IMG/VR virus record: IMGVR_UViG_3300047160_036265
Direction: 5' to 3' (one strand)
DNA length: 55,242 bases
Origin: a virus
Part shown: piece by piece, positions 24,965 through 50,481 of the stretch
Layout: the number at the start of each line of letters is the position of its first letter
Position numbering within the stretch: position 1 is the stretch's first letter
Notes under the pieces: generated by a model
Seen by the model: only the letters and a program-made list of their open reading frames with translations
Told to the model about the DNA's origin: nothing
Databases searched by the model: none
Position numbers and translations under genes: made by a program

Positions 24965-26050
24965 TCAGCCGTCCACATCCATGTCGGCAAATAGCCGGTT
25001 GGGGTACTTGACCTTGTACCCCTCCAGCAGACGGGCCTTGATCCCCTCGGTTACGTCCTTCTTGTCGAAGGCCGTCATGAGCGACCCGAAAATCTGGGGA
25101 TATTCGGCCTTGGCAAGCCAGGCATAATCCTTGCGCAGTTTTTCGGGGCCTGGATCGCCTACGGACGCTACCTCCATTATAGCAGCAGCCACCTTTAACA
25201 CACGGCTGGTTTCGTGCAGAAGGTCAAGCTGCGCCTCGGTATAGATTTCCTTCAGTTTCGCCTGGTGACGATCTGGTGCCTTGGCGATCAGGTCGTCCAT
25301 CAACCCGTCAAAGACGACTTCATAAAGCCGGTAGGCCGGACGCATGAGCGCATCAACAGCCTTGTGTCGCTCCAGATACCAGTTGCACTTCGCCTTGACC
25401 CACAGGCCATTTTCCAGAACGACGACGTAGCCTTCAAATTCCTCCCGCTCCAGGTGATCGAAGAGATCAGCGAACGCGAAGTCATAGCGGATCGCGCTGT
25501 CGGGGTAGGTTGGGCAGTGGTCGTAGTCTCCGGTGGCACGGCAACGGGAATGCAGGTACACCAGACGAGAGCGTGGGTATTCTACGACAATTTGGTTGTG
25601 GGGGGCCACAAACTCAAAGATCGGAGTATAACCTCGCCGTACCTCCTTAACAATGTCGTCCACCATACCCAATTTCCGTGCCAAACGCAACGCCTCCTGG
25701 GCCTGTGGCGTGTCGCAAGACATCCTGGTGGACGCACGCAGGTCGCCCTTCCATTCAAAGAAATGGATCATCGACCCGTCCAGCTTCTCGTACACCTTTC
25801 CATTCAGGTGGCAGAGCTTGTGGTACTGCGTCTCGTCCGTCTGGCCGACGTTGAAAAACTTGTGCAGGGGCAGGGAGACAATTTGCTCGGTGGCCTCGTC
25901 AAAGGTGATGCCCCGGAATTCCCGCCGAATGCCGTCGAACGACCCAGGAATCTGGATGAGGTAGTTTACGCAAACCAGGCCGTCGTACCGCTTTACGAGG
26001 AATTCCTCACGGCCTTCGAGGGCGACCAGGGCTTCGGAGAGGGTGAACAT
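24965..26050 (-). CDS. T4 RnlA-like RNA ligase 1 (about 361 aa)
   Basis: FRGITFDE...PLHKFFN, VYEKLDGSM (KxDG motif I) and TPIFEFVAPHNQIVVEY, collinear with T4 Rnl1. Starts at MFTLSE immediately downstream of P5. The -10 lies 6 nt from the ATG, so the mRNA looks leaderless. Confidence 0.8.
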   Translation of the reverse strand: MFTLSEALVALEGREEFLVKRYDGLVCVNYLIQIPGSFDGIRREFRGITFDEATEQIVSLPLHKFFNVGQTDETQYHKLCHLNGKVYEKLDGSMIHFFEWKGDLRASTRMSCDTPQAQEALRLARKLGMVDDIVKEVRRGYTPIFEFVAPHNQIVVEYPRSRLVYLHSRCRATGDYDHCPTYPDSAIRYDFAFADLFDHLEREEFEGYVVVLENGLWVKAKCNWYLERHKAVDALMRPAYRLYEVVFDGLMDDLIAKAPDRHQAKLKEIYTEAQLDLLHETSRVLKVAAAIMEVASVGDPGPEKLRKDYAWLAKAEYPQIFGSLMTAFDKKDVTEGIKARLLEGYKVKYPNRLFADMDVDG

Positions 26051-26056
26051 TTTGGT

Positions 26057-26086
26057 ATTGTACAGCCGGAACGAGGCGGTTGTAAA
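26057..26086 (-). promoter_or_regulatory. promoter P5 (leaderless rnlA-like transcript)
   Basis: TTTACAACC + 18 nt + TACAAT. The predicted start site coincides with the A of the ATG. Confidence 0.6.
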
Positions 26087-26283
26087 ACTGTGCGGTGCCG
26101 GATTCCCGATTCTCCACCGGCATCTCCGGGTGCCGGGACCGTGCATCCCGGCCCATTGTGGCTTTGCTCCCCGGCGTGTTAATTTGTGGATCGTGTCTAG
26201 CAGCCGAGTGGTCAAGTCGGCCTCTTTTTACACCAACCGCACAATTTTTGTTTTACAACCCATATATAGGAGAGGAGGGATTC

Positions 26284-26376
26284 ATGCACCCGCAAAGGAT
26301 TTGCAACCACAACATTATCGCATCGGAGGCGGTAAATATCAAGGCCATGTCACAGTTTGGCAGCCTGTTCTTCTAA
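26284..26376 (+). CDS. possible small ORF (30 aa) on the plus strand
   Basis: Near-perfect Shine-Dalgarno AGGAGAGGAGGG 5 nt before the ATG. Preceded by a plus-oriented TTTACAAC. Convergently overlaps the 3' end of the gene at 26350-27237 by 27 nt. Confidence 0.25.
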   Translation: MHPQRICNHNIIASEAVNIKAMSQFGSLFF

Positions 26377-27237
26377 TGCGGCTCTCACTCGTGTGGCGTC
26401 GGCCTTTCCTCCTAGCTCTCTTAAAACCGGGCCGATGAGCGAGTTGAGAGCCTGCTTTTTACCCTTCTTGTAGTCTTCAACCACCTTGGGTGATGCCGCC
26501 AGGTACTTCGCCACGGTGGTCGCAACTACGTCCTCCTGGGCAACACTAAGGATGTCCAACGCAAAGATTGCTGTCAAGGCATCAACGCCGTCCCAGCAAT
26601 AAGGAAACACATCCTTTACCTGCTTGGCGGACAGCACCCCCTTCAGTCGCAGGAACAGCAAGCTAGTTATATCATCAGCCAGCCACGGCAGATAGTCCAG
26701 CACGTCGGCTAATGTGAATTTGGTCTGCTCCAGCTTGGCCTGCAACTCGTTAGTCAGGAAATTAAAAACGAGCTTGCACCAGTCGGTCCACTCGGAAGGT
26801 GGCGCAGGCGGCGGTTTGTACCGGGGCATGTAGCCTTCATTCGGTATTTCCACCCACTCAATATCAGGCCAGTTCCGCTTTTTCTTGAGGCGAAGCCACC
26901 TTTCCAAACTCCCCTGCCCCAACAACCGCCAGCTAAAGCGGCGACTTTGTGGGGGATGTTGAAGCGTTTGCCGCCCCTCAACCTTTTTGCGCTCCGGGGC
27001 TTGGAGATCGGGCACAGTGATAAACATATGCCAATCTGGCACGCTTGCCTCTGCTGGCTTTCCCTGCATCTCGTAATACGGGAACTTCATCAGCCAGTAG
27101 ACTGCCTGACCCAGCTTATCGGTGGACCGCTCCCAATATTCCCGCTCGGCCTCCAGCCAAAAAGAAACGCCGTCTCCCGGTGGGGAGCCGGCGTTTTGCC
27201 ATTTGAAGTAGGCCCGCAGCCTAATGTCGTCAAGCAT
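26350..27237 (-). CDS. DUF2934-like N-terminus fused to a GatB/YqeY-domain C-terminus (about 295 aa)
   Basis: N-terminal IRLRAYFKW...WLEAEREYW. C-terminal VAKYLAASPKVVEDYKKGKKQALNSLIGPVLRELGGKADATRVRAALEEQ resembles the GatB C-terminal/YqeY domain. ATG with GAGGAAGG Shine-Dalgarno. Confidence 0.55.
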   Translation of the reverse strand: MLDDIRLRAYFKWQNAGSPPGDGVSFWLEAEREYWERSTDKLGQAVYWLMKFPYYEMQGKPAEASVPDWHMFITVPDLQAPERKKVEGRQTLQHPPQSRRFSWRLLGQGSLERWLRLKKKRNWPDIEWVEIPNEGYMPRYKPPPAPPSEWTDWCKLVFNFLTNELQAKLEQTKFTLADVLDYLPWLADDITSLLFLRLKGVLSAKQVKDVFPYCWDGVDALTAIFALDILSVAQEDVVATTVAKYLAASPKVVEDYKKGKKQALNSLIGPVLRELGGKADATRVRAALEEQAAKL

Positions 27238-27430
27238 CGGCCTTCCTCGTAATTTCAAATTTCAGCGTGGTGAGATCATAGCCCCGTGCCTGAAGCTCTT
27301 GGCATTGCGCTTCGCTCAAGATGTCGGCCAGGAGCCGGCGATCTGGACCATTGGGGCCGTCGAATAGCAACTGCTTGCCCTTGTGGCGCTCGCCCCGCAG
27401 GTAGCCGTAATAGGCACGGAGCTTCTTCAC
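27230..27430 (-). CDS. hypothetical protein (66 aa)
   Basis: ATGA-coupled to the upstream gene. Confidence 0.45.
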   Translation of the reverse strand: MKKLRAYYGYLRGERHKGKQLLFDGPNGPDRRLLADILSEAQCQELQARGYDLTTLKFEITRKADA

Positions 27431-28750: not shown

Positions 28751-30424
28751 TCAGGCCGCAGTCGGGCGCAGCTTCTCGACCTTCACGCCGCACTTCTCGA
28801 TGCCCTTGGCATCCATGAAGTCTTCGATGTCGAAATCAGCGTTCTTGGCGATGTTGTGCAGATAGGTCGTCTGCACCGCAGCCCGGAAGTCATCGACACG
28901 GACGAAGGTGCCTTTGCCGGACTTCGAGGCCATGTCGCGCTTCATGGCGGCGGACGTGGCGATGTCAATGATGCCGGCGATCATGGCCCCGGTGAGGCAA
29001 TCGCCCAGCGTCAAGTAATGTTCCTTGCCGCCGCCGTCCACGAGCTTGTACAGCACGCGCTCCTGGGAGAAAATCTCGGCGGTAGTGTGGGCAGCGATCT
29101 CGGCCAAATCCGCCGGGCCGGTCGGAATGCCCCGCAGGTGAATGCGGAAATATTCAATGGCCGTGCGGGTCGTGGGCCGACCGATGCGCACCATGCGGTC
29201 GATCCGGCCTTCCCGAACCACGGCGGGGTCGATGCGCTGTTGCTGGTTGGTGGCGAGCATCACCATGACCTTGGAGGTTTCCAGGCCGTCCATTTCCGAC
29301 AGGAACATCGGAACGATGGTGTTCTCCACGTCGCTCGACTTGCCGGTGCCCCGTTTCGGCAGGATGGCATCGGCCTCGTCCACAAAGAGGAGGGCGGGGT
29401 ATCCGTGTTTGCCGTGGTGTTCACGGCCACGCTCGAACAACTCCCGGATCATCTGCTCCGACTGGCCGACCCACTTGCTCAGCAACTCCGGCCCCTTGAC
29501 GTAGATGAAGCCGGACTGCATCTGCGGCTTCTCGTGAATCTTGGCGATGCTGTTCGCCGCCGCCTTGGCGCAGAGGGTTTTGCCGCAGCCCGGAGGGCCA
29601 TACAACAGGACGCCCTTGGGCGGCTTCTTGTTGTAGTGCTTGTAGAGTTCCGGGAACTGGTAGGGCCGTTCGATAGCCTCCACCAACTGCTCCTTGGCCT
29701 CGCGCAACCCGGCGATTTCATCCCAGGTCGTCTGGGACTCCTCGACCAGATTGAAGCGGTCCTGGCCGTCGCGCTCCAACAGGCGGACCACCACGGTATC
29801 GGAGGGGTCCAGCACCACCCGGTCGCCCGGCTTGAGCGTTGTGTTGGGCAGGCCGTGCAAGACCTGGCGGGGCCGACCATCCACGTCCACTTCGGCGTGG
29901 TCCTTGTCGATGAGGCGGGCAACGGCGCAGATCGTACCACCGCCGCTCGTCTCGGACTTCTCGTGGATTTGATAGGTCTGCAAATCGACCTTCACCACGT
30001 CGGACGGGAAGAACTTCTTGCCCGGAACGCCGTGAACTTCGTAGCGCTGGCCGTTGAAGACGATCACGCAGTTGGTGCCGTCGTCCTTGCCCAGCAGTTT
30101 GACCTGAACCGGCGCGTCCTTCAGGCCGATGGAAAACTTCTGGATGGCTCCGTTCGGCAGGCCCAGGGTGACGTTGCCCTCCTTATCGACGCCCTTGGAA
30201 GCGATCTTGCCGTAGCGTGGGCGTTTCTCTTGCTTGCGCCACTCCCTGTCAATAATGAGCATCAAGTCGCCTTGCTCAAAGGCGTCCAACTTGAACTCGT
30301 TATTGGCGCTGACCACGGTGGCATAGACCAGCGGGGCAGACAGGAGGCGGGCGACGAAGCACTCGTACTCCAGAATGGTGCCTTTGGCCTCTTCCAGCAA
30401 CGCCATCAATTCTTCTTCGTTCAT
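28751..30424 (-). CDS. Mpa/ARC-type proteasome-associated AAA+ ATPase homologue (557 aa)
   Basis: PKGVLLYGPPGCGKTLCAKAAANSIAK, VKGPELLSKWVGQSE, RGTGKSSDVENTIVP and IDPAVVREGRID are near-identical to mycobacterial Mpa blocks. Coiled-coil plus OB-like N-terminus. The C-terminus ends ...LRPTAA and lacks the GQYL docking motif. Confidence 0.8.
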   Translation of the reverse strand: MNEEELMALLEEAKGTILEYECFVARLLSAPLVYATVVSANNEFKLDAFEQGDLMLIIDREWRKQEKRPRYGKIASKGVDKEGNVTLGLPNGAIQKFSIGLKDAPVQVKLLGKDDGTNCVIVFNGQRYEVHGVPGKKFFPSDVVKVDLQTYQIHEKSETSGGGTICAVARLIDKDHAEVDVDGRPRQVLHGLPNTTLKPGDRVVLDPSDTVVVRLLERDGQDRFNLVEESQTTWDEIAGLREAKEQLVEAIERPYQFPELYKHYNKKPPKGVLLYGPPGCGKTLCAKAAANSIAKIHEKPQMQSGFIYVKGPELLSKWVGQSEQMIRELFERGREHHGKHGYPALLFVDEADAILPKRGTGKSSDVENTIVPMFLSEMDGLETSKVMVMLATNQQQRIDPAVVREGRIDRMVRIGRPTTRTAIEYFRIHLRGIPTGPADLAEIAAHTTAEIFSQERVLYKLVDGGGKEHYLTLGDCLTGAMIAGIIDIATSAAMKRDMASKSGKGTFVRVDDFRAAVQTTYLHNIAKNADFDIEDFMDAKGIEKCGVKVEKLRPTAA

Positions 30425-31599: not shown

Positions 31600-33225
31600 T
31601 CACGCCGCAAATTCCACGAGGTAGCGAAGCTCGAACTGCTCCCGGCTGAAGATGATCCACTCGTTGTTCATGACCTGGGAGTGACCGCCCTTGCCGAAGA
31701 CGCAGTGATGCCCAGCCGGCGGCGAGGTATAACCCCGTGGGCCGGGGGCGACGTGCGGACGGCCCAGGGCCACGTCACCAGCGAACATGAAAGCTTCACG
31801 GCCCCGAACGGAACCACCGCCGGACGACCAGTAGCTTCCACGCAGGGACGTGTAGCCGGCGGACTTTTTCCAGTCGTCCGCCCAATACAATCCCGGCCCG
31901 AACATGGCCCCGGTGATGACCACGCCGACCAACTGGTGCGGCAGGCGCAGGTTTTCACGGAGGATGCCGGTGACGTTCACGGAACGGGTTCCGTGGAACA
32001 AGAGGCCGGTGTTGCTCTCCCGGAAGCGGCGGATGTCGTTGTTATCTTGCAAATCCGCCCGCTCGGCAGGCTGGAACAGGGGCCGCTCGTGAATCGTGGG
32101 CCGGCTGGCGACGATCTTTTCCTGGCTGCCGACCAGCTTGGCCCGGTCGCCGGTGCGCTCGACTCGCCACGCATTCTTGATGCGCATGGCACCGACGCCT
32201 CCGTGACGGTTGGCGGTGGCACGAGGCCACCAGCCATAGAGCCACTTGCCCAGGTCGGTCTTCGGGTCGATCCACTCCATCCACACCGGCATCCCGCCGA
32301 AGGGGTCGTGCTGGTGGGACACGTCATCGACGGCAGCGGCAACACCCAGAGCCGCCTCGAACGCATCCAGGTCGGCCTGCCACAGCAGAATATTGCTGGT
32401 ATTGAGAATCCACTCCTGGGGCGGGCAGTGGAGCCGCTTTTTCTTCGGGATGCGACCGTACATGAGCGCCGTCAGGTGGTTCAAGTCGGCATCGGCCACC
32501 TGATCGTCCACGTTGTCACCCACGACGATGAGGCGCTTCTGGGCTTCGGTGAGGAAGTCACGGGCCTCATCAATCGCCGCCTGAGTGGGGATCGAGTCGT
32601 CGGCCATGCTGCCACGGGTATATTGCACCGTGGCCACGTTCAGGTCACGCAGCAGAGAATGGGTCTGGCTGTCCACCGGACGGCCCGCCGCCTTGATGAC
32701 CTTCTTCTTGGCGCTCTTCTTGTCGTCGGGCTTATCATCCGGTTTGGAATCGGGCTTCTTGGGAGCGCCTTCGCTGTGTTTGATGGTACGGGCATCCGGC
32801 AGGCCGGTGCTACGGGTGGCCATGCTGCGGACGAGGTAGCAGTCCTTGCCGGCACGGGCACGCAACACCCGCTTGCTGGCGACCGTAACCCACTCGCCCC
32901 GCTTGTCGTTCTTGTCGTGCAACTGGCTGGCGAACTCCCGCTGGGCGTCCGACTCACTGGAGCAAACCACGAACTGGAAGTTGGGGTTCTTGGCCCCGGT
33001 GCGCCCCCACTCGAAGTACACAGCCCACTGGCCGCTCGTCTTATGCTTGACGATGGCCCCGTGGTAATACTTGTTGGAGTCCTTGCCGTCCTGCGTGAAG
33101 CAGCCCATGTCTGCGATCTTGCAGTTGTCGAAATCGCCGTCCGTAGTGGCGGGCGGGCCGAAGCACTGCCAGTCGTTCGGGCCGGACCCGTTAGGGTAGG
33201 TGTTCTTTTCGATCTTCGATCCCAT
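31600..33225 (-). CDS. PARP-like ADP-ribosyltransferase (WGR domain plus H-Y-E catalytic domain; about 541 aa)
   Basis: N-terminal WAVYFEWGRTG (WGR). C-terminal LLFHGTRSVNVTGIL, GPGLYWADDWKKSAGY and NEWIIFSREQFELRYLVEF, matching the PARP H-G-S/T, Y and catalytic-E blocks. ATG with GGAGA Shine-Dalgarno, downstream of P8. Confidence 0.8.
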   Translation of the reverse strand: MGSKIEKNTYPNGSGPNDWQCFGPPATTDGDFDNCKIADMGCFTQDGKDSNKYYHGAIVKHKTSGQWAVYFEWGRTGAKNPNFQFVVCSSESDAQREFASQLHDKNDKRGEWVTVASKRVLRARAGKDCYLVRSMATRSTGLPDARTIKHSEGAPKKPDSKPDDKPDDKKSAKKKVIKAAGRPVDSQTHSLLRDLNVATVQYTRGSMADDSIPTQAAIDEARDFLTEAQKRLIVVGDNVDDQVADADLNHLTALMYGRIPKKKRLHCPPQEWILNTSNILLWQADLDAFEAALGVAAAVDDVSHQHDPFGGMPVWMEWIDPKTDLGKWLYGWWPRATANRHGGVGAMRIKNAWRVERTGDRAKLVGSQEKIVASRPTIHERPLFQPAERADLQDNNDIRRFRESNTGLLFHGTRSVNVTGILRENLRLPHQLVGVVITGAMFGPGLYWADDWKKSAGYTSLRGSYWSSGGGSVRGREAFMFAGDVALGRPHVAPGPRGYTSPPAGHHCVFGKGGHSQVMNNEWIIFSREQFELRYLVEFAA

Positions 33226-33261
33226 GACTTTCTCCAAGGGGTGTTGAGGATTCTGGTTATG

Positions 33262-35709: not shown

Positions 35710-35922
35710 CTAGTTGACATTCCCCGATTCTACGTCGGGATTCTTCGGTTGTAAAGCATCATTGACGTGCGGCTCACACCAACAGCCGTGGATGCGGATG
35801 CCTCCGCAGTTACAACAATATTGGTTGAGGAAGCCCCGGATGAATTCGAGTCGGTCTTCGGGGCGGAAGTGCTTCTGCCGTTCCAGAAACTCATCGTAAA
35901 GCTGCTTGGCTGACTCCAGCAT
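35710..35922 (-). CDS. Cys-rich small protein (70 aa)
   Basis: CCNCGGIRIHGCWCEPH motif. ATG with GGAGGGG Shine-Dalgarno. Confidence 0.5.
   Translation of the reverse strand: MLESAKQLYDEFLERQKHFRPEDRLEFIRGFLNQYCCNCGGIRIHGCWCEPHVNDALQPKNPDVESGNVN
35727..35755 (-). promoter_or_regulatory. promoter P9 (inside the 3' end of the upstream gene)
   Basis: TTTACAACC + 17 nt + TAGAAT. Confidence 0.55.
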
Positions 35923-36562
35923 GATCCCCTCCGATCTGGTTCGGGACTATGGCCTGTTCCATCCAGTGAACGGAAGTCTGGACGTGGTTGGGGCGAACAT
36001 ATTTGGCGACGTGACGGGCGAAATCTCCATAAGCGAAGCCCTGGCAGGTCCGCACCACATAACCCTCGCAGGTATCGCCAAAGCAAGACCGGCGGGGCCA
36101 GAGCGATTTGATGGCCTTTTCGTCCCAGATGCCTCGGTACAGTACAGGAACGGTAGGAATGTCAAAAAGTCCAGCCCACTCCACCGTCTCATCCCAGGCC
36201 AGGCAGCCGTTGCTGCCATCATATACGCCGATCAGGTAAAAATACGCTGTGAGCCGGTCGTAGAAAATGCTGTGCTTGGCGTAGACGTTTTCGCCGCAAA
36301 GCCGCCAGCCCTCCGGGATGTTGTGTCGGATCGAGGCGTGGAACTGCTTGAGGAGATTGCGAGACGGGTGGTTCTTGGAGTTGAGGGACCGGGCGTGGTA
36401 GTGGATGCAATACATGGACGTGCATTCACCGTCCATTTTTTCCGTCACCACAACCTCTTGGCCTGCAAAATGATCCACGTCGGCCAGAACCTTGTCGTCC
36501 CGGTCGGATTTCTCGCTCCAGGGCAGGTGCGGTGTTCGGGGATATTTGTACAGGCCGTTCAT
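35891..36562 (-). CDS. RNA ligase family protein (PF09414-like; 223 aa)
   Basis: N-terminal YKYPRTPHL, motif I EKMDGE (KxDG), motif III GENVYAKH, motif IV EGYVVR, motif V KYVRP. Confidence 0.7.
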   Translation of the reverse strand: MNGLYKYPRTPHLPWSEKSDRDDKVLADVDHFAGQEVVVTEKMDGECTSMYCIHYHARSLNSKNHPSRNLLKQFHASIRHNIPEGWRLCGENVYAKHSIFYDRLTAYFYLIGVYDGSNGCLAWDETVEWAGLFDIPTVPVLYRGIWDEKAIKSLWPRRSCFGDTCEGYVVRTCQGFAYGDFARHVAKYVRPNHVQTSVHWMEQAIVPNQIGGDHAGVSQAALR

Positions 36563-36583: not shown

Positions 36584-37396
36584 TTACTGTCCGGCGGGCT
36601 GAGTTGTTAAGTCCCGTTCACGCACGATGGGCCGGTCAACGCTCCAGTGTTCCGGCAGGAATTGGGGGTCCATCGTCTCGATGAAGTGCGCCCGCCACAT
36701 TTTCACAAACGCATCCATGCTGCCGTAAGTTTCGCTGATTTTACCAACCACCGTGGGGCCATGCTCGGCATAGTCCTCGGTATAAACAACGGATTCCAGC
36801 GAATCGGCACGCTCAATATCCTCCAGGGTGATGTCGTGCTTCTGATAGAAGTCGCGCAAGGTCTGAAGCAGTTCCTCGCGCCGACCAGGAGGAATACGGT
36901 CCCAATGTTTTGCCAGGGCGCAGGCGTGCTTTTTCAATTTAACAATGGCTTTATCGCAATACCAGCCGGTGCCGGTCAGGGGAATCTGATGCTCAACGGC
37001 CAACTTTTCCTTCACCCTGGTAGCTACTTCCTCATAACGGTCGTGACAGGCCACACACATGAGGAGAACGTCATGATAGTTGTGGTCCTTGAGGACCGCC
37101 GGGAAGTAACGACGGTAGCAATAGGGGATGATATGATGCCGGGTGAGTTCCACCATCGACCCGCAGACGACACATTCGTTGCGCTTGCTGGTCAGATAAT
37201 ACTGATCGCCACTATGGCCAGGGCCGTTTGGCTGGAAGCGCAGTTGAATTGTCGGCGGGCTGTCCTTCAGCTTGTCGGCAAGGCCCCGCTCCAAGTACCA
37301 GTCGATCTTGTCCTGGTTGCAGTGGAACATGATTTCGCCCTCCGGGCTAAGGACGTGGCAGTTCCCGTATAATTTGCCCTTCAGTGGCCGTGTCAC
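36584..37396 (-). CDS. HNH-motif protein (270 aa), GTG start
   Basis: CVVCGS...LTRHHIIPY...CVACH (HNH-like). GTG immediately after the upstream TAG stop. Confidence 0.5.
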   Translation of the reverse strand: MTRPLKGKLYGNCHVLSPEGEIMFHCNQDKIDWYLERGLADKLKDSPPTIQLRFQPNGPGHSGDQYYLTSKRNECVVCGSMVELTRHHIIPYCYRRYFPAVLKDHNYHDVLLMCVACHDRYEEVATRVKEKLAVEHQIPLTGTGWYCDKAIVKLKKHACALAKHWDRIPPGRREELLQTLRDFYQKHDITLEDIERADSLESVVYTEDYAEHGPTVVGKISETYGSMDAFVKMWRAHFIETMDPQFLPEHWSVDRPIVRERDLTTQPAGQ

Positions 37397-38395
37397 CTAT
37401 ATACTCCGTTTCCTCGCCGCATTCAGCCAGGACAGGTAGAACTTCTCCATGTGAATGTCAATGAAGGCGTCGTCCCGGCCCCCTTCGACCTTACGGTAAG
37501 GGGCAAAAACCTCGTCCCAAAGGGCCTGGCTCTCCTCACAATATAAGGCCAGGAAGTCCTTCTCTTGGCAGGGTTCCATGTCGCGCAGATTGCACGAACG
37601 GTCGAAGAACTTGATGACCTTGGCTTCCCACGAGACGGACTGCAAATGCTCCCGGTCCATCTTCTTGCGTTCGGCCCGGCGCAACTTCGACCCCTTGCTG
37701 GGGTTGGTCAGTTCCAGCACCAGCTTCAAAACGTCCTCGCCCGCTGTACTGATAATGGCCGAGTGCGGAACGCCGGGGCAGTCCTCCACAACATCATGGA
37801 GCCACGCCGCCTTGCCCATGCGGAGCCACTGGTCCAGAGGGAGATCACGCCGCCACCAGTTGATGCGATCAAATACCTGCGACGGGTGCAGGATGAAATC
37901 GCCCCCACCATATTTCCGCTTCTGGCCTTCATGGGCGCAATAAGCCAGGAGAATGGTATTTCGCAGGCTCTTGTCCATGAACATGCCATGAACGAACATA
38001 TGACAGTTGACGCAGGTGCCGTCGCCGCTGAGGTTCCAACAAGTGTTGCGCCAATCGTGGTTGCACGCCAGCATCTCGGTGAGACGGGTGTGGGCCATCC
38101 GTTCGGCGGCGATCCAGCCCCCGGCCTTGTCGCCGGAGCTTCCGCCCATCACGCTGAAGCGGGCGCGATGGATGGCCTTGTTGTGCCAAAAATCGAGGGC
38201 GGTGATATGTTCTGGGACCGGCACGAACACGGTAATGCCGCAGTTGGGATCGTTGGGGTTCTCGCTCAGAACGTATTCCAGCCCCAGCTTGCGGTTATAG
38301 GAGCAGCGGATGTCAGCATCCTCCGGCCAATCGAGTTGGCACTGGTATTTACCGCCTGGGGGTGGACTGTTGATGATGGGAACGAGGGGTTTCAT
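37397..38395 (-). CDS. RelA/SpoT-type HD-domain protein (small alarmone hydrolase-like) with N-terminal Cys-rich domain (about 332 aa)
   Basis: AHEGQKR...FILHP, AAWLHDVVEDC and FDRSCNLRDM, matching the (p)ppGpp hydrolase HD motifs. ATG (MKPLVP...) overlaps the upstream TAA (TAATG). Confidence 0.7.
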   Translation of the reverse strand: MKPLVPIINSPPPGGKYQCQLDWPEDADIRCSYNRKLGLEYVLSENPNDPNCGITVFVPVPEHITALDFWHNKAIHRARFSVMGGSSGDKAGGWIAAERMAHTRLTEMLACNHDWRNTCWNLSGDGTCVNCHMFVHGMFMDKSLRNTILLAYCAHEGQKRKYGGGDFILHPSQVFDRINWWRRDLPLDQWLRMGKAAWLHDVVEDCPGVPHSAIISTAGEDVLKLVLELTNPSKGSKLRRAERKKMDREHLQSVSWEAKVIKFFDRSCNLRDMEPCQEKDFLALYCEESQALWDEVFAPYRKVEGGRDDAFIDIHMEKFYLSWLNAARKRSI

Positions 38396-38787
38396 TAGTT
38401 GCTCCATGAGGCGAAGATACGTTTGACCGCCAAGACACAGTTGCCTGGGGCTAGGACGGTCAGGACAGGTACGTTGGACGGCATCCGCAGGGTTGAGTGA
38501 ATATCGACCTGATAATCCGCCACAGAAGCGAATACCGGGCAGGCGATGACGATATGAGGGGTATTGGCGGCAACCATGCCGGATAAAGCGTTTGACCGCC
38601 CAGCAACCGTGACGAAGACCACCTGATCCTCATTTTCAAATCTGCCGAGAATTTCGAGTAGTTCCCTGGGGCTTTTATGGGCGGAACAGTAATGGATGGA
38701 AACAGGGAAAGATTCCCGAAAGGGGTTGGCGATTTGTTCAACGTGGTCCTTGTCCTTCTCGGAACCAGCGATAATAACGAGTATCAT
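38395..38787 (-). CDS. PurE-like (AIR carboxylase family) protein (130 aa)
   Basis: IIAGSEKD...SAHKSP...AGRSNALSGMVAANT...IACPV, matching PurE signature blocks. ATGA-coupled. Confidence 0.65.
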   Translation of the reverse strand: MILVIIAGSEKDKDHVEQIANPFRESFPVSIHYCSAHKSPRELLEILGRFENEDQVVFVTVAGRSNALSGMVAANTPHIVIACPVFASVADYQVDIHSTLRMPSNVPVLTVLAPGNCVLAVKRIFASWSN

Positions 38788-39017
38788 TTGATAAGGTCCA
38801 ATAGAAATTCGGGGCTGTAGAGGGAAACCTCAAACCCCTTGCCTGTCAGTTCCATGAGCAGAATGCGGAGGTTCTGCGCCCGCTGCGGGCTGTCCTTCAT
38901 GATTTGCCGCACAAGCACCTTGGCTTCCTCGTCTACTTCTTGTTCCGAGAAGTAGGGGCCGTGCTTGGTGCAGGCGAAGGTTTCGACCAGGACGATCCAG
39001 TATTCTTTGAGTTTCAT
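38784..39017 (-). CDS. hypothetical protein (77 aa)
   Basis: ATGA-coupled. Confidence 0.45.
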   Translation of the reverse strand: MKLKEYWIVLVETFACTKHGPYFSEQEVDEEAKVLVRQIMKDSPQRAQNLRILLMELTGKGFEVSLYSPEFLLDLIK

Positions 39018-39511
39018 CCTTGGAACCTCCGCAGGTCCGCAGGAACATCCTCGTAATTGACAACCACACCCTTTTCCTTCTGGATGGCACGAATGGTTTC
39101 GTGGGTATATTGCTGCCGCTTACCCATGCCGCTGAGATCGACGCCGGCTGCGAGGAAGCGCCCGACCGCATATTGTTCCACCGCCTTCTGCCACCGCCAA
39201 TAATAGCGAATGGCTTGGTGGACGCTGGCGTAGCGGCAGCGGTCGTAGAAGTCGTCCTCACGGTGGCTGGGCATGGACTCGTGTTCCCACTCTCCCAGCT
39301 TGTTAAGACAGCCGAAGGTGCCCTTGATGGCCCAAAGCTCCGGCTTGTCCTTATCGCGCCGGCCCATGTTGCGAACATGGACGCCGTGCATTTTCTGGTC
39401 GTCGGAAAAGAACTCCCACCAGAACGGAACGCCGCCCAGCAGAGGCTCAGGGCCGAGATAAAACTCGCTGGCCAACTCCAGCAGGATGCTATCAGAAACT
39501 TTGTCCGCCAT
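39014..39511 (-). CDS. hypothetical protein (165 aa)
   Basis: Protein-like ORF that overlaps the upstream gene. Confidence 0.5.
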   Translation of the reverse strand: MADKVSDSILLELASEFYLGPEPLLGGVPFWWEFFSDDQKMHGVHVRNMGRRDKDKPELWAIKGTFGCLNKLGEWEHESMPSHREDDFYDRCRYASVHQAIRYYWRWQKAVEQYAVGRFLAAGVDLSGMGKRQQYTHETIRAIQKEKGVVVNYEDVPADLRRFQG

Positions 39512-40142
39512 TCTGGTTCTCCAGGGCCAGAATCAGCCGGTCCACGCCAATGGCCCAGCCAATCCCGCAGTCATAGCGCCCGCCGCCCGCCACCTGCTTT
39601 TGGGCACCCAAGCTAGGCACTTCTACCTCGAAGCCGTCTTCAACATAATAGGACAAGCCACGCTTGACGCTCGCGTTGAGGACGTAATTCTCCAGCCCGA
39701 TTGTACGGAGAAACAGGTCCAGAAGTTTAGTCATTTCCTCCTTACTGGCGGTTCCGCCCAGGTTCTCCACCCCGAATTGCCAGAATTCCCGGTAACGACC
39801 GGCCTGGGGACGGTCATAACGGTAACACCGGCTGAGGTAGAAGACCTTGACGGGTTTGGGCAGGACTTTGCTCCAGTCGTTCTTAAATTCCGCCTGGACG
39901 ATGGCGGTGACTTCCGGGATGAGGCAGATTTCCCTGCCGCCCAGGTCGTCAAAGACGTACATCTGGCCCAGGATTTCAGGCCCGGCCTTGTCGGTGAAGA
40001 CTTCCGAAGAGGCCAACAGCGAGGGGAAGAACTCCTGATAGCCTTCAGCAATGGCGGTGTAGCGCAGGGTGTCGGTCGCGTCCCGAAACGCCTTGGCCTT
40101 GGCCCCGAACAGGTGGCGGGTGCCTCTAATCGAGTTTGACAT
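39492..40142 (-). CDS. HisRS-like class II aminoacyl-tRNA synthetase catalytic-core protein (216 aa; no anticodon-binding domain)
   Basis: GTRHLFG...MYVFDDLGGREICLIPEVTA (motif 1 region), CYRYDRPQAGRYREFWQFG (motif 2), GGGRYD (motif 3). Confidence 0.7.
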   Translation of the reverse strand: MSNSIRGTRHLFGAKAKAFRDATDTLRYTAIAEGYQEFFPSLLASSEVFTDKAGPEILGQMYVFDDLGGREICLIPEVTAIVQAEFKNDWSKVLPKPVKVFYLSRCYRYDRPQAGRYREFWQFGVENLGGTASKEEMTKLLDLFLRTIGLENYVLNASVKRGLSYYVEDGFEVEVPSLGAQKQVAGGGRYDCGIGWAIGVDRLILALENQNGGQSF

Positions 40143-41091
40143 CTCCGCTCATCAACCCTTCTCGAATGCGTTCCAGCCCCCGCTCCCGCAGTTGCCGGAC
40201 TCGTTCCTTGGTCAAGCCCAAGTCCTTGCTAATCTCCTTCAAGGTACGCTTTGTGCCGCCATTCTTCAAGCCAAACCACTGTTCGATGACGTATCGCTTG
40301 CGGTCGTCTTCATCGCCCAAGGTCTTCATCAGGCGGGCCACGTTCTTCTTGACAAGCTCCTTCCCCTCCTCATAGTCCCGCAGGTCTTCGTCGCTGGTGT
40401 CCAGGCGGGTGTCATAAATCCCGTCATCAAAACCAGTCACAAACCGCTCATTAAAGGTTCGCTCACCGGCCAGATCACGGGTGAAGTTGTTAAGCAGAAC
40501 CCAGGTGGCGTAGGTGGAGAATTTGAAACCACGGGTCCAATCGAAGCAGTCCACGGCCTTAACGATGTTCATATAAGCATCGGCAAGCAAGTCGTGCATG
40601 AGGCTGTGGGAGCGGTAAAAGTCCGTCCGCTTCCGCAACACCTGAGCGGCGAGGCGGGTGTTGGAACACACGAGTTGGTGCTTCACAACCTCGGCTTGTT
40701 TCAGACATAACTCAACCCGCTCAATAGATTTCAGCGCCCGCTCGTGTTGCTCCGGGGTCGGGGCCTTGGAGCGCCGCAAGGTCCGGGTCAGACGACGGGC
40801 TTTGTACTTGAGGAAGTTATATTTGCGAAACAAATGCCGCTCCTGGTCTTTATCCAGCAGCGGCTCCTGGTATAATGGCATCAGTTCGCTAGGAATATTC
40901 TGGTGCTTGAGCTTGGCGACTTCCTGGCGCTTCTCGTTGAATTCATCCATCCGGGGCATCTCAGCCAGGATTTCCGCCTGCATAGAGCGGAGATCGAAGT
41001 CCGGCGACTTGAATATCTTGAACTTCGGGCTGCTCACATAACTCACCAATTCTTTCGCGCGCTGCGCAATGTCATCCTTTACTGCCAACAT
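40126..41091 (-). CDS. sigma-70 family sigma factor (321 aa)
   Basis: Region 2 DLLADAYMNIVKAVDCFDWTRGFKFSTYATWVL. Region 4 TLKEISKDLGLTKERVRQLRERGLERIR. AAAGGAGG Shine-Dalgarno. Own P10 promoter. Confidence 0.85.
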   Translation of the reverse strand: MLAVKDDIAQRAKELVSYVSSPKFKIFKSPDFDLRSMQAEILAEMPRMDEFNEKRQEVAKLKHQNIPSELMPLYQEPLLDKDQERHLFRKYNFLKYKARRLTRTLRRSKAPTPEQHERALKSIERVELCLKQAEVVKHQLVCSNTRLAAQVLRKRTDFYRSHSLMHDLLADAYMNIVKAVDCFDWTRGFKFSTYATWVLLNNFTRDLAGERTFNERFVTGFDDGIYDTRLDTSDEDLRDYEEGKELVKKNVARLMKTLGDEDDRKRYVIEQWFGLKNGGTKRTLKEISKDLGLTKERVRQLRERGLERIREGLMSGDVKLD

Positions 41092-41122: not shown

Positions 41123-41152
41123 ATTATATGCTAAATCGAGATGGTTGTAAAG
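41123..41152 (-). promoter_or_regulatory. promoter P10 (sigma factor gene)
   Basis: TTTACAACC + 17 nt + TATAAT. Confidence 0.65.
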
Positions 41153-41168
41153 TGCGAAATATAAGGAT

Positions 41169-41576
41169 TTACGGAACGGGCACCAAGAAAGAGTTGAGCG
41201 CCCGGACGATATTCCGCACCTTATATCCCTTGGGGTGGTCCACGACCACCGTTATTTCCTGATCGGCCACGGCCCAGGGCTTGCCGGCGGCGTTGCTTTC
41301 GATGATGACGTAGACCATAGAGTTGTGGGTATAGCGGCGGCTATAACCCAGGCGGTCCCACAGTTCCTTGGCCTGCGGGGATTGGAAAATAAAAAACTCG
41401 TTGCGATCCAGCCTGGAGCGACCCCGCAAGCTAGGTGCGCCGTTAGGCGGGTCGTCATACTCCACCACCATTTCCGGCCAGTGGGCTTTGCACAGACCGA
41501 GAATGCCCTTCTCGATCTGTGCATATTTCTTGCCTTCCGGCCAGGTGTAGAGCAGATCGTAACCGCCGATTTCCAT
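41169..41576 (-). CDS. hypothetical protein (135 aa)
   Basis: ATG overlaps the upstream stop. Confidence 0.5.
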   Translation of the reverse strand: MEIGGYDLLYTWPEGKKYAQIEKGILGLCKAHWPEMVVEYDDPPNGAPSLRGRSRLDRNEFFIFQSPQAKELWDRLGYSRRYTHNSMVYVIIESNAAGKPWAVADQEITVVVDHPKGYKVRNIVRALNSFLVPVP

Positions 41577-43138
41577 TATTTACCGCAGGTTGGGTCGTAT
41601 TTGTGCATCATCTGATTGATGGTAGCCAGGTCCAGCGGTTTGACCAGGAAATCATGGAATCCGGCGTCCTGGGCACGCTGGCGGTCCTTCTCCTGGCCGA
41701 AGCCGGTGACGGCGATGACTTTTGTTTCCGGCACGAGGCGGATCAACTCCTGGCAGACCTTGTAGCCGTCCATGTAGGGCAGGCCAATGTCCAGCAGCAC
41801 GATATTGGGTACGAACTCGGTCGCGCTCTTCAGGGCCGCTGGGCCATCGTTGGCCACCCACACGTCGTAGCCCTGCATCCGCAGCATGGCCACCATGCTG
41901 TCCGCCGCATCCACATTGTCATCCACGACGAGGATGCGGCAGTCCTTGGTAGGGGCGATGGGGAATGACGCAGGTTCCCCGGTATCCTCCTTGCGTGGTG
42001 AACCGCCCTCGATGGATTCCGGTACGGGAACCTCGTCGCCCACATCGCTTACGGGGAATTCGATGCTGAAGGTGGACCCCAGGTTGAGGCCCGGCGAATG
42101 AGCGGCAACGGTTCCTCCCTGAAGCTCCGTCAACTGCTTGACGAGGCTCAGACCTACTCCCAGACCGCCGTGGGTCTGGTATTCGCCCCGGCGCTCGGCC
42201 TGCACGAACAGGTCGAAAATACGGGGCAGCATGGTTTCGGAGATGCCGATGCCGGTATCCACGACTTCGATTTTTACCTTCTTCTGGTCATCCGAGAGGA
42301 GGCAGTTGAGACGGATTTTTCCACCCGGTTCCGTATATTTGGCAGCGTTGTTGAGCAAATTGGAAATCGCCTGCTCGACACGGGGCGCATCGCCCACCAT
42401 CCAGATCGCCTCGGACGGGATGGAAATGTATAAGGAGTGATAGCGGGTGTCGATGGCGGGCCGTGACTGGTCGATGGCGTTGGAAATGGCCCGCTGAAGC
42501 TGGACTGGCTCCTGCTTGATATTGATTTTGCCCCGGCTGATGCGGGCCATGTCCAGCAAGTCATCCAGCAACCGGCCCATATGCTTGACCTGGCGCTCGA
42601 TGATATTACGGTGGTCGCGCAGTACGGCGTCCTGGTTGCCGTCGCGCATCCGGGACACCTGGAGCGACGACAGGATTGGGGCCAGCGGGTTGCGCAGTTC
42701 GTGGGACAGAACGGCCAGGAACTCATCCTTGCGGCGGTCGGCCTCGGCCAGTTCGTCAATCCACTTCTTGCGTTCGCTGATGTCCCGAATAACGGCGACA
42801 ATCCCCTCCTGGTCGCCGTGGTTGAACTTGGACAGGGACATCTCGACGGCGAATTCCTCACCGTTACGACGCCGGCCCACCGTCTCGACCAGTGAGCCGA
42901 TCATGGGGCCTTCCCCGGTGGCCTTATAGTGGACGATACCCCGTGCCATCTCCTCCTGCATACGCAGCGGCACGAAGTCCGCACAGGCAACAACCTTGTT
43001 GACCATCTCCTCCTGCCGATAGCCGAACATCCGTTCCGCCGCCGGGTTGAAATGGGTGATGAGCAAGTCCTGGTTGGCGATGATGATGGCATCCTGGGCG
43101 CTGTCGAGGATGGCTTGCAACATGGCTATATCCTCCAT
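41576..43138 (-). CDS. hybrid sensor histidine kinase (PAS-HisKA-HATPase-REC; about 520 aa)
   Basis: H-box SHELRNPL, N/G boxes LLNNAAKY, DTGIGI, GGLGVGL. C-terminal receiver ILVVDDN...LLDIGLPYMDG...KPLD. TGATG coupling. Confidence 0.8.
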   Translation of the reverse strand: MEDIAMLQAILDSAQDAIIIANQDLLITHFNPAAERMFGYRQEEMVNKVVACADFVPLRMQEEMARGIVHYKATGEGPMIGSLVETVGRRRNGEEFAVEMSLSKFNHGDQEGIVAVIRDISERKKWIDELAEADRRKDEFLAVLSHELRNPLAPILSSLQVSRMRDGNQDAVLRDHRNIIERQVKHMGRLLDDLLDMARISRGKINIKQEPVQLQRAISNAIDQSRPAIDTRYHSLYISIPSEAIWMVGDAPRVEQAISNLLNNAAKYTEPGGKIRLNCLLSDDQKKVKIEVVDTGIGISETMLPRIFDLFVQAERRGEYQTHGGLGVGLSLVKQLTELQGGTVAAHSPGLNLGSTFSIEFPVSDVGDEVPVPESIEGGSPRKEDTGEPASFPIAPTKDCRILVVDDNVDAADSMVAMLRMQGYDVWVANDGPAALKSATEFVPNIVLLDIGLPYMDGYKVCQELIRLVPETKVIAVTGFGQEKDRQRAQDAGFHDFLVKPLDLATINQMMHKYDPTCGK

Positions 43139-43539
43139 CACCCCTGGTCAGGGGGCAGTTCCGTAAAGAAGTCCTCGGATTGCTCGACAACCTCTTGCCC
43201 CCCTTGTCGTGCAGCGAGTTTGTGACCCAGACGGAGCAGACCTAGCGCGATATGCGGAGGAAGGTTATGAACCTCCATTTGCAGGTCAATGCCCATAAGC
43301 TCGAACCTGGGCAGCAAGAGAACGAATTGCGGTTGCGGCCTCTTGCGCAACTCGGCCAGCAGTTGATCGGTTGTAGCCAACTCCAGGTCGAGTTGCAAGG
43401 GGTCTTTTCCCACAAGGACGTTCAGACGTTGCTGCAAGTCATGTGCCCGAACTTTGTAGCGGTACAAACGAAAAACCAGATAACCCCCCATCGCCGTGAG
43501 CAGCAGCGCCGTGAGGCTGGCAACTACGAGGTTGAACAT
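43138..43539 (-). CDS. membrane-anchored protein (about 133 aa)
   Basis: Internal ATG (MFNLVVAS...) with AAGGAGAGGG Shine-Dalgarno. N-terminal TM helix. Immediately upstream of the hybrid kinase. Confidence 0.5.
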   Translation of the reverse strand: MFNLVVASLTALLLTAMGGYLVFRLYRYKVRAHDLQQRLNVLVGKDPLQLDLELATTDQLLAELRKRPQPQFVLLLPRFELMGIDLQMEVHNLPPHIALGLLRLGHKLAARQGGQEVVEQSEDFFTELPPDQG

Positions 43540-48037: not shown

Positions 48038-49333
48038 TTATGCGGCCTTGACCGGCAGCAGTTTGACTTCGCCCCGCACAACTTCGGGGGTCACGACCCA
48101 CTTGCCGCCCTTGTGGTCAGGCAGTTCGTACATGATGTCGAGCATGATCTCCTCAACCACGCCCCGCAAAGCACGCGCACCCGTATCCCGTTCGATGGCG
48201 AGCTTGGCGATTTCCTTGACAGCACCGGGCGTAAACTCCAGGTCGGCCCCGTCCATGCGGAAAATCTTCATGTATTGCTTGAGCAGGGCGTCCTTGGGGT
48301 CGGTCAGAATCTTGCAGAGGAATTCCTCGTTCAGTTCGCAAAGCGTGGTGATGACCGGGAGCCGCCCGACGAATTCGGGGATCATGCCGAACTCGATCAG
48401 GTCGTCGCTTGTCACCTTGCCCATGATGGCATCGTTCTGTTCCTGCTCTGTGCCCTCCTCGTGTTTGACGCCGAAGCCGATGCTCCGCTTGCCGGTGCGG
48501 CGGGCGATGATGTCCTTGAGGCCGGTGAACGTGCCGCCGCAGATGAACAGAATGTTGGTGGTGTCCACCTGGATATATTGTTGCTCCGGGTGCTTGCGCC
48601 CGCCCTGTGGGGGGACGTTCGCCAACGTGCCTTCCAACATCTTCAGAAGGGCCTGCTGGACCCCTTCGCCCGACACGTCACGGGTGATGGAAATGTTCTG
48701 GTTGGTTTTGCCGATCTTGTCAACCTCATCGAGATAAATGATGCCGCACTGAGCGGCCTCGATGTTAAAATCTGCCGACCGAAGCAGCCGCAGCAGCAGG
48801 TTCTCAACGTCTTCGCCAACGTAGCCCGCCTCTGTCAACGTGGTAGCGTCCCCGATGGCGAATGGCACGTCCAGCTTCTTGGCCAGGGTCCGTGCCAGGA
48901 GGGTCTTGCCAGAACCAGTAGGGCCGATCAACAAGATGTTGCTCTTGTCGATGTTGACCTCGGCCAAGGGGTCCGCCTCACCATCCTTTCTGGTAAGCGT
49001 GTGGTCCTTCAACCGCTTGTAGTGGTTGGCGACGGCCACGGCCAGAATCTTCTTGGCCCGGTCCTGGCCGATAACGTACTGGTCCATGTGCGCGACCAGT
49101 TCCTTCGGAGAAGGGATGCGCTGCGGAAGGTACTGGTCGGACAATTCGCGCTTGAGATTTTGCTTCCTGACAATCTCCTCGCAGATGCCGACGCAGCCGG
49201 CGCAGATGAACACCTTATCCTCGTCGGGTGTTCGTCCGTTGGCCAGCGCCCCTGGACCTTCGATCAGCGGTCCCACTACCTTGTGGGACTGCTTGCAAAA
49301 GTCACAATGCTGATCCCTCTTCTTCCTCGTCAT
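48038..49333 (-). CDS. clpX: ClpX ATP-dependent protease ATPase subunit
   Basis: N-terminal C4 zinc finger (CDFC...CAGC), Walker A GPTGSGKT, and ClpX-typical blocks. ATG (MTRKKRDQH...) with AAGAGG Shine-Dalgarno. Confidence 0.85.
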
Positions 49334-49374
49334 GCTTGCCTCTTTCGGGTTGTGGGTAGTTGATTGCACATCTC

Positions 49375-49413: not shown

Positions 49414-50481
49414 TCAAGACTTTGCTCGCCGCCTGACCTCTTCCAAGGTCCGCTTACAGTGAGCCTTAAAGTCTTCGTCGGCCAAGGTTTCCACGATTTT
49501 CTCAACCTCTTCCAGCGGCTTTCGCTCCTCCAGGGCCGTCAGGATCAGGTCCAGGTCTTTGTTCTGCTTGCGGTAACAGGCCACTTCCAGTTCGGAAAGG
49601 GCATTGCTGACACGCTCCGGGTTGGGGTAGGGCTGGTCCAGGGCCTCCATCACTTCCTCGAAGTCGGGATCGCCGGTCAATTTGCAAATTGTCAGGGTCT
49701 TCAACACGGCCTTGCGCCCGGACTCAAGCTCCAGAAAATTGGTCGCCGCCTCCGCTTCCTCGTACTTCCCGGCAGCAGCCAGCAGAAACACCTGGCGCAA
49801 CCGGCGGAATTCGGCATGGAGCTTAACGACGTTCAACTCGTTCTGCGCCATCAAGGCAATCAGAGGCATGATGAGGGCCATCAGCCACATCCGAGTTGCC
49901 AGGGCAAAGAGAAACAGGAGTATACAGGTCAACTGGCCAACCCGTACCGCCCACCATGTTGCCCGGCGGTAATCCATGAAATGACCCAGGAACGACCGCA
50001 GGATGCGGCCACCGTCCATCGGATAGGCCGGTGCCAGGTTGAAAACGATCAGGATGAAGTTGATATAGGCGAGGGTGTAGGCGAAGGAAACCGCCTGCGC
50101 CCAGCCCAAGGACGCGAACACCAGCACCAGCACCCCGAACAGGCCGCACAGGACGACATTCACCATCGGCCCCATCAGTGTGACGAAGAACTCTTTTTTC
50201 GGCTCGTCCGGCCCCATCTGGATGGAAGCAATGCCGCCGATGGGGTAAATAGTGATCCTTTCCACCGGAACATCAAAGTATTTGGCAGTGAGGACGTGGC
50301 CGAATTCATGCAGGATGACGCAGGCATATACTGCCAGCATCAATACTAACACCAAGGGGTTGGGCAGCAACAACAGGAACATGAGAGTCCATGTCCAATG
50401 CGCATACAAGGGAACTCCGAAATAAGTACCCAGATGCGGATTCAGAACCTTGCTCACTCCGTTCCAGAAGGTAGTATTCAT
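49414..50481 (-). CDS. M50 family site-2 protease-like membrane metalloprotease
   Basis: HEFGH in a TM helix and NLAPAYPMDGGRIL (LDG motif). AAGGA Shine-Dalgarno. Confidence 0.75.
   Translation of the reverse strand: MNTTFWNGVSKVLNPHLGTYFGVPLYAHWTWTLMFLLLLPNPLVLVLMLAVYACVILHEFGHVLTAKYFDVPVERITIYPIGGIASIQMGPDEPKKEFFVTLMGPMVNVVLCGLFGVLVLVFASLGWAQAVSFAYTLAYINFILIVFNLAPAYPMDGGRILRSFLGHFMDYRRATWWAVRVGQLTCILLFLFALATRMWLMALIMPLIALMAQNELNVVKLHAEFRRLRQVFLLAAAGKYEEAEAATNFLELESGRKAVLKTLTICKLTGDPDFEEVMEALDQPYPNPERVSNALSELEVACYRKQNKDLDLILTALEERKPLEEVEKIVETLADEDFKAHCKRTLEEVRRRAKS

Follow-up and report, generated by a model that had tools for sequence, protein, structure and literature searches.

Accessory genes in a variable stretch of a huge-phage operon: an extended alarmone hydrolase, a class II PurE and a minimised HisRS-like protein

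Gene content of the interval

The DNA considered here is IMG/VR virus record IMGVR_UViG_3300047160_036265, a stretch of 55,242 nt (hereafter, the window) that is huge phage DNA. Our subject is the interval 37397-40142, where an earlier note made from the letters alone had seen a cluster of three genes: one for a RelA/SpoT-type HD protein, one for a PurE-like protein and one for a 216-aa protein resembling histidyl-tRNA synthetase (HisRS), here called mini-HisRS. The three open reading frames (ORFs) are indeed collinear and tightly packed on the minus strand at these coordinates, with gene junctions overlapping by 4-20 nt in an operon-like manner. The three named genes are real, with one correction to the gene content: the interval holds five genes, as two ORFs that had been missed, p77 and p165 (77 and 165 aa), lie between the PurE and HisRS-like genes. 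Neither of these two gave any family match in our family scans.

Our best explanation, to which we give a probability of about 0.7, is that the three genes provide three independent accessory functions (an alarmone/toxSAS countermeasure, purine supply and tRNA-His charging) in a variable slot of an early operon. The interval would be a variable stretch of such an operon led by a sigma factor gene, and a promoter-like site found upstream of that gene (Table 1) is a possible start, judged from its match to the consensus, of the transcription unit holding the HD, PurE and HisRS-like genes. G+C content at third codon positions shows no indication that the PurE or the HisRS-like insertion is recent, and an Rfam search of the region of the three genes turned up no structured RNA.

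Synteny in related phages

Gene order was compared between the window and six related huge-phage contigs (L059, L063, L064, L065, L070 and L071). They have a backbone in common, ClpX ... sigma / HD hydrolase ... RNA ligase ... WGR-PARP, and vary exactly in the interval between the sigma and HD genes. The window order, sigma-HisRSl-p165-p77-PurE-HD-HNH-Rnl, is reduced to sigma-p165-p77-PurE-HD-HNH-Rnl in L059 (69-79% amino acid identity), where the HisRS-like gene is absent and 35 nt separate sigma from p165. L063 and L064 read sigma-p165'-p74-p77'-HD-HNH-Rnl, so that they carry a p165 homologue and lack both PurE and the HisRS-like gene. The HD gene directly follows sigma in L065, as does a gene for a 191-192-aa HD protein in L070 (390 kb) and L071 (602 kb). 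PurE is thus found in one of the six contigs and the HisRS-like gene in none.

A scan of IMG/VR for the short HisRS-like protein, by pattern plus tblastn, returned 52 loci, mostly on contigs of 150-675 kb. PurE lies within 10 kb of the HisRS-like gene in none of them, and an HD hydrolase is nearby in only five, at varying distances. Single-sequence tblastn of the window neighbours against these loci proved too insensitive for divergent RNA ligases and was replaced by all-vs-all clustering of the neighbours of the HisRS-like genes. This clustering revealed no universal partner; the neighbours are clade-specific and comprise RNA ligases, HNH proteins, a 109-aa protein and a short TrpRS/TyrRS-like protein. 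Because related contigs lack one or both genes, and the 52 HisRS-like loci lack PurE within 10 kb, the PurE and HisRS-like genes are independent accessory insertions between sigma and HD. The trio whose co-occurrence the earlier note had proposed to look for does not recur, and its reading of the three genes as one unit does not hold.

The most conserved feature of the region is the adjacency of the sigma gene and the small alarmone hydrolase (SAH) gene, as the HD gene will be called from here on where its activity is meant. Setting aside the variable genes, sigma stands beside the HD gene in L059, L063/L064, L065, L070 and L071. This adjacency suggests that (p)ppGpp removal may belong to the takeover of transcription. 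Downstream of the HD gene, the HNH-like 270-aa protein carries a weak motif (CxxC...HH...CxxCH) and is helical in its C-terminal half. It has no strong family match, and PDB sequence searches with it and with the PF09414 ligase gave nothing useful.

Table 1. Features of the window, from the interval outwards; L059 and L063/64 are related contigs of the synteny set
Feature	Position	Strand	Remarks
HD-protein ORF	37397-38407	-	336 aa; M5 is the likely start (332 aa; so called in contig L001)
Small alarmone hydrolase (RSH-type HD) domain	37397-37960	-	H174, H204/D205, E208/D209, D269, N273 conserved
N-terminal ~150-aa domain of HD protein	37961-38407	-	beta-rich module, helix, zinc-ribbon-like motif
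Class II PurE (AIR carboxylase), predicted	38395-38787	-	130 aa; accessory insertion; otherwise only in L059
p77, predicted ORF	38784-39017	-	lineage backbone; homologues in L059 (68%), L063/64 (39%)
p165, predicted ORF	39014-39511	-	lineage backbone; homologues in L059 (67%), L063/64 (27%)
Mini-HisRS	39492-40142	-	216 aa; catalytic core of a class II HisRS; inserted in this phage as an accessory gene
Phage sigma-70 family factor (regions 2 and 4)	40126-41091	-	conserved upstream anchor of variable region
Sigma-70-type promoter-like site, TTTACA-17-TATAAT	41123-41151	-	11/12, consensus match only; upstream of sigma gene
HNH-like 270-aa protein	36584-37396	-	weak HNH match; directly downstream of HD gene in 4/6 related contigs
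RNA ligase (PF09414)	35891-36562	-	backbone member
WGR-PARP	31600-33237	-	backbone member in all related contigs
ADP-ribosylglycohydrolase	21111-22127	-
NUDIX hydrolase	24135-24704	-
T4 Rnl1-like second RNA ligase, adjoining protein with DUF2934 and GatB/YqeY tRNA-binding-type domain	24965-26215, 26350-27258	-	outside the three-gene interval
PAS histidine kinase	22658-24073	-
PAS histidine kinase, hybrid	41576-43141	-	with receiver domain
PRPP synthetase	53821-55089	-	~100-aa N-terminal extension
ClpX	48038-49369	-
M50 peptidase	49414-50481	-
Proteasome-type AAA ATPase	28751-30424	-	OB domain
tRNA, CUA anticodon	2264-2337	-	amber-suppressor type; only tRNA in window

An N-terminally extended alarmone hydrolase

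The RelA/SpoT-type HD domain named in the earlier note is borne out. Family scans matched residues ~150-296 to HD_4 (E 1e-5) and spoT_relA (3e-8), in an ORF that holds AAWLHDVVEDC and FDRSCNLRDM. The catalytic motifs (R/K164-165, H174, H204-D205, E208-D209, D269 and N273) align with those of Rel and Mesh1 and, in alignments of homologues, are either invariant or conserved to at least 90%, which answers the check that the note had asked for. The protein has the hydrolase fold of the RelA/SpoT homologue (RSH) type and no synthetase domain, HD_4 being the sole domain matched and the remainder an unmatched N-terminal domain. With 332-336 aa in place of the single domain of ~180-200 aa expected of an SAH, it is a variant architecture. 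Searched by tblastn, it found 147 phage records, among them one from Salmonella phage SSU5 (33% identity) and many from phiKZ-like jumbo phages.

On sequence grounds, the N-terminal ~150 residues are a new part of this protein. They comprise a beta-rich module and a helix followed by a conserved, zinc-ribbon-like C115-x-H117...C132-xx-C135, and they match no family or fold in Pfam, PHROG or the PDB, in agreement with the novel Cys-rich domain described before. The extension is found in about ten clusters and is missing from the closest 191-aa homologues, those of the related phages of 390-602 kb. It also sets the window protein, by its ~150 aa with CxH...CxxC, apart from the phage SAHs PaSpo and PbcSpo and from RelH/Mesh1. 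A phage SAH extended in this way may reveal how alarmone hydrolases are targeted (e.g., to tRNA) or regulated during infection.

The enzyme would most likely hydrolyse 3'-pyrophosphorylated nucleotides, (p)ppGpp and (pp)pApp, and possibly 3'-pyrophosphorylated tRNA, thereby blunting the host stringent response and defences based on toxic small alarmone synthetases (toxSAS) of the CapRel type. PaSpo of SSU5 and PbcSpo of PVP-SE1 neutralise all toxSAS tested, CapRel included (PMC7229694). CapRel is an antiphage system that acts via pyrophosphorylation of the CCA end of tRNA (PMC9712102), and tRNA with a pyrophosphorylated CCA end is restored by SAHs (10.1101/2021.04.30.441581). Since its homologue PaSpo neutralises all toxSAS tested, a role of the HD protein against toxSAS/CapRel-type toxins is plausible by analogy. 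This much of the alarmone-degradation proposal of the earlier note stands, but not as something new, toxSAS neutralisation being a role already known for phage SAHs.

A class II PurE

The 130-aa ORF matches AIRC (PF00731) above the gathering score (E 2e-27). Its best PDB matches are T. denticola class II PurE (3RG8; 7.5e-19) and human PAICS (2H31), and the alignment spans the whole protein. The active-site loops are those of class II, SAHK instead of SAHR and AGRSNALSG instead of AGGAAHLPG, identical to T. denticola PurE and also the same in the PurE domain of PAICS. The K-for-R change is a noted difference between PurE classes (PMC10484210). In comparison with the T. denticola enzyme the window protein is ~30 aa shorter, lacks the C-terminal helix and stands alone in a phage operon. 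Bacteria often encode proteins of 128-140 aa that carry the annotation 'AIR carboxylase family'. One of them (P0037, 128 aa, 54% identical to the window PurE) is encoded between purC and purB in the operon purL-purM-purQ-purC-[AIRC]-purB-purF-purD-purN, without purK. Because this protein sits in a complete pur operon, the short PurE form is a genuine purine-pathway enzyme.

By its sequence the window protein is an ordinary class II PurE, an enzyme of the purine pathway, and the novelty ascribed to it in the earlier note disappears with such close bacterial homologues in pur operons. It would carboxylate aminoimidazole ribonucleotide (AIR) directly to its carboxylated form (CAIR), supplying purines without PurK or ATP. 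The NCBIfam purE equivalog cut-off is not reached (87.6 bits vs 149.6) by this short protein without a C-terminal helix. Its only related gene in the window is that of a phosphoribosyl pyrophosphate (PRPP) synthetase, 15 kb away. LarB was considered as an alternative identity and rejected (15 bits vs a cut-off of 175).

A minimised HisRS

Family scans of the 216-aa ORF returned tRNA-synt_His (4e-17) and, in two stretches, TIGR hisS (5e-45). It aligns with residues 4-157 and 250-321 of T. thermophilus HisRS (Tth HisRS), and this alignment confirms what had been described: motifs 1-3 are present, along with HisA, HisB and the catalytic residues, while the insertion domain (158-249) and the anticodon-binding domain (from 325) have been lost in frame, together with 11 residues in the motif-3 loop. 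The protein stops after motif 3, and the downstream p165 has no HGTP_anticodon match and is present in L059 without a HisRS-like gene. The score for the NCBIfam hisS equivalog, 154.2 bits, stays under the cut-off of 286.75. An AlphaFold (AF2) model (pLDDT 89.6, pTM 0.87) is similar to HisRS catalytic domains (TMq up to 0.88); in the fold search, HisZ structures rank below HisRS, and M. alvus PylRS is among the matches.

The short form is widespread: identity to mini-HisRS reaches 53% or more in over 120 protein clusters of 171-240 aa, and gp14 of phage Phosso, annotated 'histidyl-tRNA synthetase', is 59% identical. A frameshifted hisS, the possibility by which the earlier note would have fallen, was rejected on the short architecture in so many clusters, the in-frame deletion and the nature of the downstream ORF, an unrelated backbone gene. 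Across 48 distinct viral sequences, residues corresponding to E. coli E83, T85, R113, R121, Q127 and E131, R259, Y263 and Y264, the HisB GGG-Y and the motif-3 arginine R311 are 96-100% conserved, so that the histidine- and ATP-binding residues singled out for checking are retained. Likewise, where Tth HisRS contacts G-1 and the acceptor end through 70'DRG72', E114, R115 and R122 (PMC4357726), mini-HisRS keeps D66-[R/K]-G68, E/D110, R/K111 and R118. Within the incomplete coverage of our literature search, we found no paper on this family or on HisRS in jumbo phages.

Canonical HisRS (E. coli 1KMM, T. thermophilus 1ADJ/4RDX) has the same class II core with HisA (RGLxYY) and HisB (GGGxY), and its adenylate-binding arginines and acceptor-end contact residues recur in mini-HisRS, which is half its size. 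Equally restricted to a class II catalytic core are synthetases without an anticodon-binding domain, such as M. alvus PylRS (~275 aa), and the engineered HisRS urzymes of 119-145 aa, which activate histidine (PMC3060492). Unlike the urzymes, mini-HisRS is natural, widespread and under purifying selection, has ~200 aa and keeps motif 3 and HisA/HisB; its charging activity is predicted. HisZ, the regulatory subunit of ATP phosphoribosyltransferase, is a HisRS paralogue that likewise lacks the anticodon-binding domain. It retains, however, the insertion domain that mini-HisRS has lost, and it goes with HisG, whereas mini-HisRS has conserved catalytic residues and its gene tracks tRNA-His genes rather than hisG. 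HisZ was rejected as an identity for mini-HisRS. One family member of 358 aa (P0230) is fused to an HNH_3 domain, and this fusion hints at a spread of the gene among phage genomes by mobility of the homing-endonuclease type.

Association of mini-HisRS with tRNA-His

Mini-HisRS genes lie in tRNA arrays. The nearest tRNA is tRNA-His in 10 of 45 loci, against 6% of all tRNAs there (binomial p = 4e-4), and most of the tRNA-His genes in these loci have G at -1, G1-C72, C73 and an encoded CCA. HisRS relies mainly on G-1:C73 and charges microhelices, the anticodon being a weak determinant (PMC4357726), so an enzyme consisting of the core only could plausibly charge tRNA-His. Mini-HisRS would most likely form histidyl-adenylate and charge tRNA-His by recognition of the acceptor end (G-1:C73). 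That the ~200-aa proteins of huge phages are working minimised synthetases, charging phage tRNA-His purely via G-1:C73, and with that the smallest natural aminoacyl-tRNA synthetases known, is a tentative proposal whose chances we put a little short of even. If it holds, mini-HisRS and tRNA-His form the phage's own HisRS/tRNA-His pair.

In Phosso, a phage of S. meliloti (Rhizobiales), a G-1:C73 tRNA-His lies 306 bp from mini-HisRS. Members of the Rhizobiales have a tRNA-His without G-1 and an orthogonal, G-1-independent HisRS (PMC3064791). If S. meliloti follows this type, the Phosso tRNA-His would, by analogy, depend on the phage mini-HisRS.

The trinucleotide ATG precedes 27 of 32 phage tRNA-His genes (L003-L055), so that the two preceding bases are conserved along with G-1, perhaps as a processing signal by which G-1 is kept. 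The two phages LR745206 and LR756502 (634-642 kb) have two PF09414 RNA ligases flanking or following mini-HisRS, with a conserved 90-aa ORF between and an HNH protein and tRNA arrays upstream. Such sets of mini-HisRS and PF09414 ligases lie at 5986-8470 of L005 and 5334-7594 of L006. A shortened class I TrpRS/TyrRS-like protein (239 aa; PF00579, 4e-38) is found near mini-HisRS in L006, L039, L055 and L031; its ORF in L006 (~1400-2130) is 4581 nt upstream. These huge phages may have a general tendency to encode miniaturised synthetases.

Weighing the explanations

The reading of three independent accessory functions builds on the domain identities, the conserved active sites, the fold, a synteny that shows the genes to be independent and the linkage of mini-HisRS with tRNA-His at the level of the family, from which we infer the substrates and activities of the three proteins. 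Several points weigh against it. Tight packing under one putative promoter would equally fit a functional link. All three proteins score under their NCBIfam equivalog cut-offs, because each is a shortened or extended variant. PurE has no further pur gene for company among the ~45 ORFs of the window that were scanned. The remaining points concern charging: the window has no tRNA-His gene, its sole tRNA being a CUA suppressor, and most members of the mini-HisRS family have D or N in place of the second G-1-pocket glycine (Tth G73). Mini-HisRS also lacks the insertion domain, which in the canonical enzyme helps to clamp the acceptor stem (PMC4357726), so that it may charge tRNA only weakly or with the help of a partner.

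The strongest competitor, though unlikely, is a module for the reversal of tRNA damage with PurE as a bystander: SAH would strip the 3'-pyrophosphate added by toxSAS, the RNA ligase (with the HNH-like protein) would repair cleaved tRNA and mini-HisRS would recharge tRNA-His. The SAH-(HNH-like)-RNA ligase synteny kept in all related contigs speaks for such cooperation, as do the ligase pairs, HNH protein and tRNA arrays around mini-HisRS in LR745206 and LR756502, the ability of SAHs to restore pyrophosphorylated tRNA and the presence in the window of an Rnl1-like ligase and a GatB/YqeY-domain protein. Yet six of the seven backbone contigs lack mini-HisRS, neither an SAH nor a detectable ligase lies close to mini-HisRS in most of its loci, no end-healing kinase or phosphatase was identified beside the ligase, and the fact that genes adjoin each other in a phage operon says little about whether they cooperate. 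The least probable of the alternatives is the idea of the earlier note that the trio makes or breaks a novel nucleotide second messenger (e.g., a histidine/imidazole-nucleotide conjugate) or acts by tRNA mimicry. HisRS and PurE both bind imidazole-containing ligands and the three genes share one tightly packed transcription unit, but the trio is conserved in no related or unrelated locus examined, PurE shares 54% identity with genuine enzymes of pur operons and mini-HisRS tracks tRNA-His genes. We saw no supporting indication of a new messenger and nothing that indicates mimicry, the region being free of structured RNA and the only Rfam finding a suppressor tRNA 35 kb away.

Individual proteins might also act otherwise than proposed here. 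There is a slim chance that the HisRS-like protein is no synthetase and works as a regulator in the manner of HisZ, or binds uncharged tRNA as Gcn2 does and serves as a decoy that prevents RelA activation. Like HisZ, it has no anticodon-binding domain; NCBIfam HisZ models match it at E 1e-20, the window encodes a PRPP synthetase, and the neighbouring SAH could conceivably link the protein to the stringent response. The hisS model is nevertheless far ahead (154 vs 72-75 bits for the HisZ models), HisRS structures stand above HisZ in the fold search, and no HisG was found among the window and locus ORFs scanned. Moreover, at least 96% conservation is seen for the arginines that bind ATP and adenylate, which HisZ, a protein without adenylation activity (PMC9437257), does not need. 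Slimmer still is the chance of non-purine chemistry in the PurE-like protein, e.g., a LarB-like carboxylation of nicotinic acid adenine dinucleotide or another nucleotide. Its shortness, the missing helix and its isolation from pur neighbours would fit, and PARP, ADP-ribosylglycohydrolase and NUDIX enzymes acting on NAD or ADP-ribose are in the window; on the other hand, the LarB match is one of 33 residues at E 0.012, T. denticola PurE has identical class II motifs, and equally short homologues lie inside pur operons.

With three independent accessory functions as the preferred reading, the region is an accessory-gene hotspot and, as a cluster, of limited importance. Each gene belongs to a known kind, and purine-biosynthesis genes, tRNA synthetases and tRNA ligation are already listed for huge phages (PMC7162821). 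The really interesting part of the locus is mini-HisRS, a widespread and uncharacterised phage family. If active, it would be a natural counterpart of the engineered urzymes and a compact candidate for an orthogonal HisRS/tRNA pair, and it would show how much of a class II synthetase is dispensable in vivo.

Phage context of the window

Minus-strand ORFs can cover ~94% of the window, and the exact PurE protein is also recorded on a contig of 669,797 bp. We call the window huge phage DNA because of this contig, a gene content typical of huge phages (sigma factor, ClpX, PARP, RNA ligases and PRPP synthetase) and nearest isolates that are jumbo phages, by DNA or protein.

Other genes of the window are listed in Table 1. 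WGR-PARP, ADP-ribosylglycohydrolase and the NUDIX hydrolase make up an ADP-ribose/NAD-related set, and the Rnl1-like ligase and the GatB/YqeY-domain protein are further RNA/tRNA-related genes. The hybrid one of the two PAS histidine kinases keeps its place a little upstream of sigma in the closer relatives L059 and L063/L064. The CUA tRNA, 35 kb from the three genes, is labelled 'tRNA-Pyl' by ARAGORN and scores 60 bits with the Rfam tRNA model. TAG is not globally recoded, since the sigma, HD and histidine-kinase genes still end in TAG at positions matching their homologues. CUA suppressor tRNAs are present in L008, L016 and L029 as well.

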